Shown piece after piece: positions 2,580 through 22,479 of a stretch of DNA of 26,219 nt. The position numbers and the translations under genes are program-made. This stretch comes from a virus (lineage: Duplodnaviria; Caudoviricetes): IMG/VR virus record IMGVR_UViG_3300002091_000104, positions 1-26,219 of that record. One strand, given 5' to 3'. Below the pieces are notes generated by a model. The model did not search any database, was not told the DNA's origin, and saw only the letters and a program-made list of their open reading frames with translations. Numbering within the stretch: the first letter of the stretch is position 1; every line of letters starts with the position of its first letter.

Positions 2580-3425
2580 AATACGATGAGAATACTCGTC
2601 TTACTAAGAATCTTTTGAAGGATTATTGTTTCCCTTCGTTTCCATCAACTTTTGGTTGATAATTCTTAACACCGGTTATTTAGGATAACCATACCTTAGG
2701 GTCTTAATTACTCTCCTGATACTCAATCCTATTCAAGTTTGCGACCTGATTCGGGGTTCGACCCCCTATAAGTTTTTCACAGAAATCTAATCAGTCTTGC
2801 GGACATCTTAGGCTACCGACAGCCGGTAACTAAGTTGGTGTCTTACATCAAAACCCGGTAAACACTTTTGCTCTATATCTTTTAGTTTTTCACCATATTG
2901 AAAATAGTAATTGTGTTGTGGATGAATCAAAGAAGTGGTCTACCATAAGCTCCATAACCTTTTGGGTTAAAGAATACTAAACTTCTTCGTGAGATATCCC
3001 TATCTCGGTAATTTAAGAATTCTTCGAATCAAAATCTTGGTAGATGTTTGATAAGGATAATGACAGCACCACCTGTTACTTATCTTGTCTTTCGACTTTA
3101 AGATTTCTCTTGTACTGGAACCCGCAATCATAAAGTTGGATGACTTTATTTCTCACATAGTCCCTATGAGTTATTCTTAAATTGGAGTTCCCCCCTCAAC
3201 CGAAAGACCCACATCTCCCGGTCAGTAATCCATTTCCCTACGAAGTTATCCTCGGTACTACAGGTTTACTGATATCTCACTTGTATACTCGAGCTCCCTT
3301 TCAGAAGCCCCAAACTTAATAACACAACTAAGTTCGGTTTATATTGAATTTCTTCAATTTATTTAAGGATGATATACCACCCATTATCATTTTTTACTCC
3401 ACCGAAGTGGGTAAAGGATAATCCA
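2580..3425 (-). ncRNA. Large structured ncRNA (~850 nt), GOLLD-like candidate
   Basis: No ORF of 60 aa or more; GC above flanks; many short hairpins (e.g. GTC-GAAA-GAC, ATCAAC-CAAAA-GTTGAT, GGTTAT..ATAACC); own promoter, boxA-like site and terminator; adjacent to tRNAs. Size and context fit GOLLD; the family call is not verified. Confidence 0.62.
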
Positions 3426-3429
3426 AAAT

Positions 3430-3497
3430 TTTTAAGAACGTCTTGAGGTTTTCCTCATTTGTTTTACAAAGGTAAGTGATTTTTTTCATTTGTCAAG
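3430..3497 (-). promoter_or_regulatory. Promoter (TTGACA ... TACCTTTG) followed by boxA-like GTTCTTAAAA
   Basis: -7 element at 3467-3474, TTGACA near 3491-3496, boxA-like at 3430-3439 (identical 10-mer at 4098-4107). Confidence 0.6.
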
Positions 3498-3521
3498 CAC
3501 TTTATAAAACTTTTTTTTTAA

Positions 3522-3751
3522 TCTGTGATAAGACCTTAAGATTTACTCATTCGTAGGTCACCCATTCTGTACTACCTAAAACTCGCCTTTAACATCCGTT
3601 CTACCCAAACCATCGTTTATTTCTTGTTAACCTCACGGTTATCTTTGAGTACCTCCTCAACTGTAATCTGATAGGGGCTCCATATTGCTCGTCATTTCTG
3701 ACTCCCTATGGGGTTCTGCTGTAATAGGTCTATCTGATATCTTATCACAGA
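3522..3751 (-). ncRNA. Unknown ~230-nt structured RNA closed by a 12-bp terminal stem
   Basis: TCTGTGATAAGA (3522-3533) is the exact reverse complement of TCTTATCACAGA (3740-3751); internal hairpins; no ORF; directly 3' of a tRNA-like gene. Confidence 0.5.
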
Positions 3752-3853: not shown

Positions 3854-4007
3854 ATTTAATCCTAACTTGTTATGGCGATTACATTTTTCAGTAACACGTT
3901 AGATGCGAAGGGCTACCTCCCGAACTGGTTACGGGTCATACACAATCTCATTTTCCTCACATACCATAACGACCGATTGAACCTAAGTCGTTAATTAGAA
4001 TATATTG

Positions 4008-4085
4008 TAGTGGACGTATGCTCTACCATCTGAGCTACGGGGTTAAGACCGGAGGGATTTGAATCCTCGACACAACGTCCACCTA
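4008..4085 (-). ncRNA. Circularly permuted tRNA-like RNA (T arm, looped acceptor, D arm), YrlA-like topology
   Basis: GTGGACGT-TGTGTC-GAGGATTCAAATCCCTC-CGGTCTTAACCCCG-TAGCTCAGATGGTAGAGC-AT-ACGTCCAC: the T arm precedes the D arm and the two ends pair. Confidence 0.7.
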
Positions 4086-4097
4086 TTTTTTCAATAA

Positions 4098-4967: not shown

Positions 4968-5039
4968 TGGCTCCGAGGGGATTCGAACCCCCCATTACAA
5001 GTTTTAGAGACCGTCGTGTAACCATTACACTTCGGAGCC
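4968..5039 (-). tRNA. Amber suppressor tRNA (anticodon CUA)
   Basis: GGCTCCG/CGGAGCC-A acceptor, GTGT/ACAC D stem, loop CT-CTA-AA (anticodon 5007-5005), GGGGG-TTCGAAT-CCCCT T arm. The anticodon stem needs a one-nucleotide bulge. Confidence 0.85.
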
Positions 5040-5071
5040 AAATTGGATTGGTATCTCAACCAATCCGAGTA

Positions 5072-5101
5072 CAAAGATAGTACTATTTTTTATTCTACCA
5101 A
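5072..5101 (-). promoter_or_regulatory. Bacteroidota-type promoter for the suppressor tRNA
   Basis: TTTG near 5099-5102 and TATCTTTG at 5072-5079, followed by a GGATTGGTTGAGATACCAATCC hairpin. Confidence 0.65.
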
Positions 5102-5362
5102 ACTTTTTTCAAGTTTTTCTTGTCTTTTTTTTAAGACACGTTTTTTATCACGTTTATCGTACCAATAAGAACCCAATAGTTCTGTACACTTTTTATCCAT
5201 CTCAACAATCTTATCGAATAACTCAATCTTTTGTTGGTCTGTTAATTTCTCTGTTTTAACTCTCCATTTATCTCTGTTCTTAACAGGATTAGGGTTTAAT
5301 AGTTTGTGTACTAAATTACTGAAAGTACTTTTAATCATCGGTGTTTGCGTATTTGTTTTCAT
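5090..5362 (-). CDS. Hypothetical basic protein
   Basis: ORF track; third gene of the operon. Confidence 0.7.
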   Translation of the reverse strand: MKTNTQTPMIKSTFSNLVHKLLNPNPVKNRDKWRVKTEKLTDQQKIELFDKIVEMDKKCTELLGSYWYDKRDKKRVLKKRQEKLEKSLVE

Positions 5363-5371
5363 TTCTTTATT

Positions 5372-5629
5372 TTATTTAATTTTAGCGATTATGTTTTTTT
5401 CCCCATCTTCTTCCAAGGTCAAATAACCTTTGATTTTGATACTCCCTTTAGTGTGGGGGTTGTCAGGAGTTTCCTTTGTTGAGAATCCCACTCCGGGACT
5501 TACATCAACGTGGTGAACATAATGAGTGTCGCCTCTACACTTAATAACCCACATCGGAATGTTTGGGTCAGTAAGATGTTTCTTGTTGAAATGAAATACA
5601 ATTTCACACTTTTTGTTAATCTACATCAT
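5372..5629 (-). CDS. Hypothetical protein with in-frame TAG at codon 3 (85 aa on readthrough)
   Basis: ATG ATG TAG ATT AAC AAA AAG TGT... is in frame with track ORF 5372..5554 (MM*INKKCEIVFHFNKKHLTDPNIPMWVIK...). Confidence 0.72.
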
Positions 5630-5649
5630 AACTTTTTTGTTTTTAAGGT

Positions 5650-5979
5650 TTATAAATTTTTTAATGATAATGGTAAGGATGAGGTCATCTTGGATGACAC
5701 ATCCGTGGATTCAAACGCAATGGATGTTAGTTGATAACCAATATCCGGTTCCTGAAAATAAGACACACTTATTCCTTGGTCGTTGAGTTTGTTTAATAAT
5801 TTTGTTAATGATTCTTCGTCTTTAACGGATAACGAAATTAAGTAGTTGTTATTCCATTGACGTGCCTTTTCCGGGTGTTCTAAAAAGAACTGAGAAATGG
5901 CGTGCCCGGATTGGGCAATTTGATAACCCGGTTTTAAGTCTCCTCGGGTAACGACGTAAAGTTTGTTAATCTATTTCAT
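5650..5979 (-). CDS. Peptidyl-tRNA hydrolase, Pth2-like, with in-frame TAG at codon 3 (109 aa on readthrough)
   Basis: MK*INKLYVVTRGDLKPGYQIAQSGHAISQF...W.N..LISLSV..E..L......F.EPDIG.QLTSIA....LPL matches the PTH2-family pattern. No ATG follows the TAG early enough to give an alternative start. Confidence 0.85.
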
Positions 5980-6020
5980 AATAATATAAATATAAGTTAT
6001 TAAATTAAAAAGTCAAATAA

Positions 6021-6150
6021 AAATTTTAATCGTAGGTTTCCAATCTACTCCGATAACTGTTGTCAATGTGATTTGGGTTAGTTTGCCTCTAACTTAGACA
6101 CCTCGGGTCCCAGCAACGCATTTGCTTCTTTGTGGGTTTGATTAAAATTT
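6021..6150 (-). ncRNA. Unknown ~130-nt RNA closed by an 11-bp terminal stem
   Basis: AAATTTTAATC / GATTAAAATTT ends; internal GTTAG..GCAA..CTAAC hairpin; directly 3' of a tRNA-like gene. Confidence 0.4.
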
Positions 6151-6151
6151 G

Positions 6152-6265
6152 TAGTCAGGACAGGAATCGAACCTGTAAGGTATAACCACTAAAAGCGTGG
6201 AGATGGAGGTCAATTCCTCTTTTACAATACCAACCTGTGAGCGTTTACCATTCCGCCACCTGACT
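6152..6265 (-). tRNA. tRNA-like RNA, AGTCAGG family, expanded centre with no canonical anticodon arm
   Basis: AGTCAGG/CCTGACT-A acceptor, Leu-like D arm GGCGGAATGGTAAACGC, ACAGG-TTCGATT-CCTGT T arm. Confidence 0.65.
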
Positions 6266-6388
6266 GTTTTGTAACGTTTAATCTGATAACCTTACGAAGA
6301 GTTGTTTCTATATTAATCCAATTGTAATGTTGGTTGTTGGAGGGAAAGTTACACATCTAAACCCATCAGGAGCTACCAACACCCCTTG

Positions 6389-6468
6389 TAGTCAGGACAG
6401 GACTCGAACCTGTAATTACCTCTTAATCTATAATACCGCAGTGTTCCCAATTATTTCACCACCCGACT
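6389..6468 (-). tRNA. tRNA-like RNA, AGTCAGG family, unpaired anticodon region
   Basis: AGTCGGG/CCTGACT-A acceptor, ACAGG-TTCGAGT-CCTGT T arm. Confidence 0.6.
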
Positions 6469-6526
6469 TCCGTTCTAACGAGAGCATCTCACCTCAAAGA
6501 CTGTTCATAAACTAGTTTAATTAGAG

Positions 6527-6628
6527 TAGTCAGGACAGGATTCGAACCTGTTCCGTCTTTACCATAAAGAGTCGGCCTTACCGTTACTCAACCTTGGGGA
6601 GGTGATACCAACCAATGGTCTCCTGACT
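6527..6628 (-). tRNA. tRNA-like RNA, AGTCAGG family, non-canonical centre
   Basis: AGTCAGG/CCTGACT-A acceptor, ACAGG-TTCGAAT-CCTGT T arm. Confidence 0.6.
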
Positions 6629-6780: not shown

Positions 6781-7008
6781 TTAATTATCTAAATTATCTT
6801 TCAAAACCGGAACTGACTTTCTAAACTCTTCGTCAACGATTACACCCCAACTCATACCAATTGGATGTGTGTCATACCCCGAACTTCTTAGATTGTCTGC
6901 CACCCACGCCATTCTTTCACCTCTTGGTCTTTTACAAAAAACAGGGTCATTTGTGGTTACCAATACCATCTCAAACATCAGGTTAATAAGTTTTTGTTCT
7001 TTACCCAT
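6781..7008 (-). CDS. Hypothetical phage protein
   Basis: ORF in operon. Confidence 0.7.
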   Translation of the reverse strand: MGKEQKLINLMFEMVLVTTNDPVFCKRPRGERMAWVADNLRSSGYDTHPIGMSWGVIVDEEFRKSVPVLKDNLDN

Positions 7009-7009
7009 T

Positions 7010-7552
7010 TTATCTATTATATCTATTTCGATTAATCCCTAACGCCATTTCATATGAGTTCATAAAATCATCTCTATCATCATTAAAAAGATACGAAGAT
7101 TCTCTTAAAGTGTCAAATCCCCCTCTTCCGGTGTAAATCGTAAATGTTGGTTTACGTTTTTGTTTTTCCGGTAATTTAAAGTTACCCTCATTAGTCATAA
7201 AAATATCAAAATCTTTAATCGAACATATTGAAAAATCAAAGTTTAGTGATTTTTTCATTATACGGGTAAGAACCAGTAAACCTGTTTGGTCTAAAAGTTT
7301 CTTACTAATACCATCCCAACGATAATCCAATATTTTAACAGAAACAAGTATCTTATCTCTAATCGAGCCATCAAGTTTTATAACTTGAAATTTAAGAAAA
7401 TCTTTACTGTGTTCACTCTCCCAAAGATATTCATTATTATCGAGGAATAAACGTTTGTATGAGTCTATACTATGTTTTAAAGAACTTTCCATAATTACAT
7501 ACTCATCATCCATCCCATTCGGTTTTGCTCTTGATACTGAGAATATGTACAA
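7010..7552 (-). CDS. Hypothetical protein (true start probably the MDDEY Met near 7513)
   Basis: ORF track; overlap with the upstream gene suggests a later start. Confidence 0.65.
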   Translation of the reverse strand: MYIFSVSRAKPNGMDDEYVIMESSLKHSIDSYKRLFLDNNEYLWESEHSKDFLKFQVIKLDGSIRDKILVSVKILDYRWDGISKKLLDQTGLLVLTRIMKKSLNFDFSICSIKDFDIFMTNEGNFKLPEKQKRKPTFTIYTGRGGFDTLRESSYLFNDDRDDFMNSYEMALGINRNRYNR

Positions 7553-22321: not shown

Positions 22322-22395
22322 ATATTCCCGTCTTTCCGAGATGTCAACTACTTGTATGTTGTTCCTACATACCAATCCTCTTATAGTCGATTTTG

Positions 22396-22479
22396 TGAAA
22401 AGAGTAGGATTCGAACCTACAATGCCATCATCACTGACCTGAAGTCAATTCAACGCCTTACCATTTCAGCCATCTTTTC
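22396..22479 (-). tRNA. Atypical tRNA, possible TCA (opal-reading) anticodon
   Basis: GAAAAGA/TCTTTTC-A; ATTGA-CTTCAGG-TCAGT; extra nucleotides between the D and anticodon arms. Confidence 0.55.

Follow-up and report, generated by a model that had tools for sequence, protein, structure and literature searches.

The stretch of DNA analysed here (the window) is the complete IMG/VR virus record IMGVR_UViG_3300002091_000104 (Duplodnaviria; Caudoviricetes), which is 26,219 bases long with a GC content of about 30%; the virus's own genome is known only over these 26 kb. Sequencing runs that contain it come from freshwater, wastewater and wetland metagenomes. On the minus strand of the window, two adjoining genes each carry an in-frame TAG at codon 3, and a tRNA gene with a CUA anticodon lies downstream. 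We refer to such an early TAG behind an ATG as an amber gate. Both TAG codons and the CUA tRNA are real, and the gate is strongly conserved among homologues of the two genes.

Gene 1 (5650..5979, minus strand) has 109 codons and encodes a protein with a predicted Pth2 fold (PF01981), with its TAG at 5971..5973. Gene 2 (5372..5629, minus strand) has 85 codons and encodes a small protein modelled as mostly beta, with its TAG at 5621..5623. As the original prediction had it, both TAGs are followed by the same ATT AAC AAA, after which the frames stay open for 106 codons in gene 1 and 82 codons in gene 2. The Pfam PTH2 match begins at residue 3 past the gene 1 TAG (29.6 bits; cut-off 23), in agreement with the claim that the Pth2 motif sets in right after the stop. 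A scan of the whole window returned 48 sites at which an ATG is followed by an early TAG, and only genes 1 and 2 stand out as having at least 80 open codons and no ordinary start soon after; a third site, at 7053, has an ordinary ORF start available at 7008. Both TAGs are unchanged in contigs (not raw reads) from runs X5 and X10, the latter a strain with 22 differences, all of them outside both TAGs and the tRNA. Contigs of run X1, which was excluded from the independent count as the possible origin of this very DNA, carry both TAGs too. Sequencing error as the origin of the TAGs is ruled out by these assemblies together with the conservation among homologues. RNA contigs from four metatranscriptomes span parts of the genes; contigs of this kind carry no information on level or strand, and DNA carry-over is possible.

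The tRNA gene (4968..5039, minus strand) has its CUA anticodon at 5007-5005, a G1-C72 pair and A73, and the CCA end is not encoded. It matches Rfam RF00005 at 48.5 bits and fits the cloverleaf plan, the CUA being part of an anticodon loop of 7 nt; ARAGORN misses it at the default score and gives a CUA call at a relaxed score, so that the predicted CUA tRNA beside the genes is borne out. Its best named BLAST matches are weak, to tRNA-Trp and tRNA-Met. The tRNA begins 333 nt past gene 2, as had been predicted (about 330 nt), with an ordinary gene in between that had gone unmentioned: gene 3 (5090..5362, minus strand), an ungated ORF for a basic protein of 90 aa, which close relatives also have after their copies of genes 1 and 2.

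A promoter-like motif, TTTG / TATCTTTG, precedes the tRNA (5072..5102, minus strand; motif scan), and a weak variant, TTTG / TATATTTA, ends 7 nt before the gene 1 ATG (5987..6017, minus strand). The window has eight motifs of the form TTTG / TAnnTTTG, every one of them on its minus strand, against a resampled mean of 1.8 and maximum of 7; the TATATTTA variant occurs at five sites against a resampled mean of 3.0, a weak excess. Because we take TTTG / TAnnTTTG to be the Bacteroidota-type promoter consensus, these motifs suggest a Bacteroidota host. A scan for sigma-70 promoters and terminators gave results at chance level.

Conservation of the early stop codon

Homologue loci were collected by single-protein and profile scans of IMG/VR, the profile scans giving the best 80 of 367 and the best 80 of 304 loci, and three GenBank loci were added; each locus comprises 5-12 kb of sequence. 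Starts were classed by script, duplicates were merged, and matches at a locus edge (<90 nt) or lacking the start of the profile were dropped. Conservation of the TAG, a check that the original prediction had named, is extensive: 75 of 83 gene 1 homologues begin with an ATG that is soon followed by a TAG in frame (six are ungated, one has TAA and one is unclear), as do 61 of 96 gene 2 homologues (34 classed as ungated, one unclear). The gated gene 1 proteins are diverse, with a median identity of 46% and 23 clusters at 60% identity (n = 73). Most of the ungated gene 2 copies (26/34) follow a gated gene 1 at a distance of less than 800 nt, and in many of these a GGAGG overlaps the gene 1 end; two more sit two genes behind a gated canonical Pth2. 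Among the others, one (L146) is gated on inspection and one is cut at a contig edge, so that four remain. The GGAGG over the gene 1 end is strong in L029, L035, L036 and others (near 4970-4990); these phages are AT-rich and, by eye, their other starts show no GGAGG.

What surrounds the stop is much less constant than the stop itself. An ATG in frame lies at most six codons upstream at 134 of 138 sites, with one site in each of the other two frames. Among 136 gates, the stop is at codon 3 in 84, codon 4 in 20 and codon 5 in 23, and it ranges from codon 2 to codon 10, ahead of the folded domain. There are 28 kinds of codon directly before the stop and 17 directly after it. The exact ATTAAC context seen in the window is therefore not needed: ATT follows the stop at 81 of 136 gates, a near-cognate start codon at 93, and the remaining 43 next codons are not start-like. 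Lys codons directly precede the stop at 38 of the 136. The base after the stop (+4) is a purine at 134 of 136 gates and never T; where TAG terminates a long ORF in these loci, a purine follows in 74 of 129 cases. In Escherichia coli, a 3' purine aids amber suppression and U aids termination. Three kinds of gene carry the gate, namely gene 1, gene 2 and canonical Pth2, and it is always near the start. One gene 1 homologue (LR756501.1, from 2492) has TAG-ATT at both codon 3 and codon 37, with two CUA tRNAs downstream.

A CUA tRNA is present at 67 of 75 gated gene 1 loci and 47 of 61 gated gene 2 loci. In a non-redundant set of 105 such tRNAs, the anticodon loop is CTCTAAA in 84, G1-C72 is found in 81 and A73 in 71, the variable loop is 4-5 nt in 96, and pairs 2-71 and 3-70 differ among them. 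Under the identity rules of E. coli, a tRNA of this kind would accept Lys or Gln, and by that analogy one of these is the likely inserted residue. The Gln written at the gate in database proteins likely reflects the code 15 assumption of the gene caller and is no evidence for the residue.

Several cultured or named phages carry the same arrangement. In RHph_I1_18 a gene 2 that the annotation lacks has its TAG at codon 6 and is followed, 12 nt on, by a CUA tRNA; pT24 has a gene 1 fusion with TAG at codon 3 and a CUA tRNA 2.6 kb upstream; and in XacN1 an ATG and TAG gate lies seven codons ahead of the annotated start of ORF364. Phosso has a canonical-type pth with TAG at codon 4 and two CUA tRNAs. 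In its relative Atu_ph07 (72% identity over the matched part), the pth has an in-frame TGA at codon 7, 39 codons before the annotated start (AUZ95035.1), and the phage encodes a UCA tRNA, as reported in its genome paper (PMC6102473), where Phosso pairs TAG with CUA. No CUA anticodon is found among the 30 tRNA calls for Atu_ph07, three longer Rfam matches having received no anticodon call. All five cluster C mycobacteriophages examined, drawn from 206 matched Mycobacterium records, have NTG-TAG-GTG with a CUA tRNA downstream. In these phages the NTG is preceded by a TTGACA and, at a distance of 6-7 nt, by a TAnnnT box, as would fit a leaderless message; the GTG after the stop is the annotated start, and GGAGG or GAAGG lies 7 nt ahead of it in four of the five. 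All four huge-phage records examined are gated.

Elsewhere in these phages TAG remains an ordinary stop, as the original prediction had held in arguing against wholesale recoding. It terminates 1 of 29 window ORFs of at least 80 aa, 129 of 1,151 long ORFs in the gated loci, and 10/136, 6/109 and 6/99 long ORFs in three relatives (G001-G003); across seven genomes, its share of long-ORF ends is 6-25%. No other gene-like frame that requires TAG readthrough was found in the window. Whole-genome recoding (code 15) was accordingly rejected despite the suppressor tRNA. Clustering of 574 candidate frames in the loci gave no gated families beyond those of gene 1 and gene 2. Scanning seven genomes 20 kb at a time (337 of 385 kb of XacN1 and the whole records of the other six) showed no TAG excess over TAA and TGA candidates beyond the known gates and no other convincing gate, with candidates judged by eye and not by homology; the scan is incomplete, since it recovered 7 of 10 known gates.

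The gated proteins and their neighbourhood

The structural model of the gene 1 protein (pLDDT 94.8) matches 2zv3 in Foldseek (E 2.6e-8, TM 0.79), and with the Pfam match the modelled fold is that of Pth2 (PF01981; PDB 2zv3, 1xty). The catalytic region is different. In a sequence alignment with 2zv3, the first loop of gene 1 is two residues shorter and the Lys of the GKGK loop is absent; this column of the gene 1 family holds Tyr in 14 of 25 sequences, and its five commonest residues exclude Lys. Where Pth2 has R-D-A-G-H-T, gene 1 has an invariant F-x-E-P-D, in which the Asp position is an invariant Glu and the Thr four residues later is absent. We take these positions to be the catalytic ones of Pth2 (K18, D86 and T90 of the Sulfolobus enzyme), an assignment that a search of papers did not confirm.

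Gene 2 is modelled as a small beta protein (pLDDT 91.5) and has 829 database relatives. In structure searches the best Foldseek match has E 0.39 and the best VIA match in the PDB has Z 3.1; it resembles only phage models in BFVD. An Atlas search gave no usable match (best 0.78, under the trust level), and there was no match to gene 2 in five cultured phage records. A longer form makes up 32 of the 61 gated copies, and in one protein (P0129) gene 2 is fused behind a Pth2-like domain. A further family, which we take from its motifs to be of the HD type, forms fusions with gene 1 in XacN1 and pT24 and is adjacent to gene 1 in five loci; the HD-motif part of XacN1 ORF364 has no Pfam or PDB sequence match. 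These fusions and adjacencies suggest that the genes may form a module acting on tRNA 3' ends.

Other translation-related features lie near the gates. Of the 67 gated gene 1 loci with a CUA tRNA, 30 also have a tRNA-Cys gene no more than 2.5 kb from the gate, and one locus (L027) has four. Six loci have a small release-factor-like gene with a GGQ motif near gated gene 1 (L113, about 3284-3682). In the Lak-B4 locus, relaxed ARAGORN calls a tRNA with a TTA anticodon at 844-916, 600 nt before an ungated gene 1 homologue. The window itself also encodes SmpB, a GOLLD RNA (2583-2989, minus strand, 281.6 bits) and numerous tRNAs. Just upstream of gene 1 (about 6150-6627, minus strand) are three tRNA-like RNAs with near-identical 3' halves (T arm and acceptor strand) and long, mutually different middle parts. 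An odd tRNA-like gene at 22395-22479 (minus strand) is called tca by ARAGORN, and no TGA-gated ORF was found in the window. A YrlA-like RNA match at 3991-4095 (minus strand) scores 39.2 bits, under the gathering score of 69.

A candidate readthrough mechanism and its alternatives

We propose that ribosomes would start at the ATG and that a UAG a few codons in would block the two adjoining genes, full proteins being made only when the charged phage tRNA outcompetes release factor 1 (RF1). Several features point this way: the TAG is kept while its neighbouring codons vary, an ATG lies in frame, the +4 base is biased, a CUA tRNA is near, and one phage, Atu_ph07, has the matching pair of TGA and UCA. 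From these sequence features it is highly probable that the phage tRNA competes with RF1 to decode the stop of the gate. The tRNA carries a host-type promoter motif and depends on the host for processing and charging, so that the gate would open as the tRNA accumulates or RF1 activity falls, and opening would coincide with a need to clear unreleased or acylated tRNAs. The N-terminal position fits, because a failed attempt would cost only a di- to hexapeptide. A gene 2 without its own stop would inherit control through translational coupling to gene 1, which is the likely arrangement where an ungated gene 2 follows a gated gene 1. The gate would thus make a small, putative tRNA-cleanup module depend on how strongly stop codons are read through during infection, and as a whole explanation we give this a probability of roughly 0.7. 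That the purpose of the gate is a graded sensor or a delay is a more tentative proposition, to which we would give slightly less than even odds.

For that purpose the main rival is a fixed dimmer or safety lock, in which readthrough by the phage tRNA would limit the output of a protein that does harm when fully expressed, and nothing would be sensed. It is consistent with all of the conservation data, and a promiscuous deacylase could be toxic at a high level. Nevertheless, weak starts or promoters would be cheaper than a tRNA that also acts on the other TAG stops, which end 6-25% of long ORFs, and the +4 base is tuned toward readthrough and not away from it; we regard a fixed cap as unlikely. 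Of the original prediction, a dedicated amber gate in a standard-code phage is supported, and it may either switch output or simply cap it.

Alternatively, there may be no readthrough: a short ORF would end at the TAG, the protein would start at the next codon (ATT or GTG), and the tRNA would be a bystander. The frequency of ATT and other near-cognate codons behind the gate is compatible with this, as are the annotated GTG of cluster C and the GGAGG or GAAGG ahead of it. However, nearly a third of the next codons (43/136) cannot plausibly initiate, the in-frame ATG would be needless for reinitiation, the gate stop is almost never TAA although TAA is the commonest stop, and Atu_ph07 pairs TGA with UCA. 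In cluster C, the -10-like box 6-7 nt before the first NTG would place the GGAGG outside the message. A start directly after the TAG, which had been named as an observation that would overturn the prediction, is thus improbable.

It is less probable still, and already largely refuted, that the gate is a neutral relic or a first step of recoding, in which TAG drifted in after the suppressor was acquired and gene and tRNA are now interlocked. Acquisition of a suppressor has been proposed to precede recoding (Borges et al., bioRxiv 2021.08.26.457843), and gene 1 of LR756501 has a second internal TAG. Drift, however, predicts TAGs scattered over many genes, in contrast to the two gated families among 574 candidate frames, the lack of TAG excess in the seven genomes scanned, and the confinement of the gate to the start in each of three gene types. 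Finally, a special pyrrolysine-like residue encoded by UAG and required by the proteins is scarcely credible: ARAGORN and GenBank label such tRNAs tRNA-Pyl because of the CUA anticodon, tRNA-Pyl has G73 and a 3-nt variable loop unlike most of the 105 CUA tRNAs and unlike the window tRNA with its A73, the position of the stop shifts from codon 2 to as far as codon 10, before the folded domain, and ungated homologues exist.

A number of observations weigh against the proposed readthrough gate. The loci were picked for their resemblance to the window; being related, they do not count as independent trials, and the support comes from sequence and models. The predicted co-occurrence with a CUA tRNA stands for most gated loci but is not specific to them: the tRNA is also present at five of six ungated gene 1 loci and 26 of 34 ungated gene 2 loci, so that in this sample its presence does not by itself separate gated from ungated loci, and it was not seen within the 5-12 kb available at 8 of 75 and 14 of 61 gated loci. 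The homologue with TAA at the gate (L191, near 5994) has no tRNA within its 12-kb locus. The pth examined in RsoM2USA is ungated although a CUA tRNA is present, and no suppressor target was found in that phage; the gene 1 homologue of Lak-B4 is also ungated. The exchange of TGA and UCA for TAG and CUA rests on one case, and the GTG after the stop in mycobacteriophages could be a start. The anticodon stem of the window tRNA is imperfect and is unpaired in the minimum free energy fold. The cleanup activity is uncertain because gene 1 lacks the canonical Pth2 catalytic motif, and gene 2 offers no functional clue, with no family in Pfam or PHROG.

The departure from the catalytic motif also bears on the feedback through fMet-Lys-tRNA drop-off that had been suggested. 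With Lys before the stop at only 38 of 136 gates and the motif altered, the idea is weak, and such feedback is no part of a general design. Early peptidyl-tRNA drop-off is frequent in E. coli, with fMet-Lys among the cases described (PMC10192219); by analogy, feedback of this kind is possible for the window copy, although it is not conserved. A bolder extension of the readthrough gate is a closed feedback circuit in phages of several bacterial phyla, in which the suppressor tRNA would probe or attack host termination while the gated Pth2-like protein and its partner would in turn act on the suppressor in its charged form, or on tRNAs with damaged ends, and so set readthrough. We consider this doubtful.

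Relation to known systems and meaning

Control of a translation factor by the very defect that it corrects is familiar from the frameshift autoregulation of release factor 2, which reports on itself by frameshifting and uses no dedicated tRNA. ArfA is likewise a quality-control protein made only when a normal step fails, through trans-translation; it depends on a non-stop message and, unlike the gate, involves no dedicated tRNA (PMC8012679). Closer in logic is bldA of Streptomyces, where one dedicated tRNA gates chosen genes, such as adpA, through the rare codon UUA; this is a host system with a sense codon and no release-factor competition (PMC10732093). In recoded phages (code 15; crAss-like and Lak phages), a phage tRNA also reads a stop, and expression timing has been proposed (bioRxiv 10.1101/2021.08.26.457843; a further account of stop-codon-recoded phages is in PMC13037316). 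Those phages have internal stops in many structural and lysis genes, whereas the gate is one early stop in one or two translation-related genes under the standard code.

The nearest precedents are the standard-code jumbo phages XacN1 (PMC5852040), Atu_ph07 (PMC6102473) and RsoM2USA (PMC8504454), which likewise carry CUA or UCA tRNAs. The XacN1 authors could not identify targets of its CUA tRNAs (PMC5852040), and these papers examine or count stops at gene ends, whereas the candidate targets proposed here lie upstream of annotated starts (XacN1 ORF364, AUZ95035.1). In the literature searched, with most subscription journals and supplements outside it, no description came up of a stop gate at the N-terminus that is served by a phage tRNA of its own.

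The gate offers a concrete target for the suppressor tRNAs of standard-code phages that were left unexplained in the XacN1 and Atu_ph07 papers, as well as for the CUA tRNAs of cluster C mycobacteriophages that are labelled tRNA-Pyl. It also corrects gene calls, given that gated genes have been overlooked, truncated, or translated with Gln on the assumption of code 15. The arrangement would represent translational control by a single stop codon and a single tRNA that phages of Bacteroidota, Pseudomonadota and Actinomycetota have retained, and it bears on the origin of stop-codon recoding: should the closed feedback circuit prove true, such circuits would be a reservoir from which whole-genome recoding arises.
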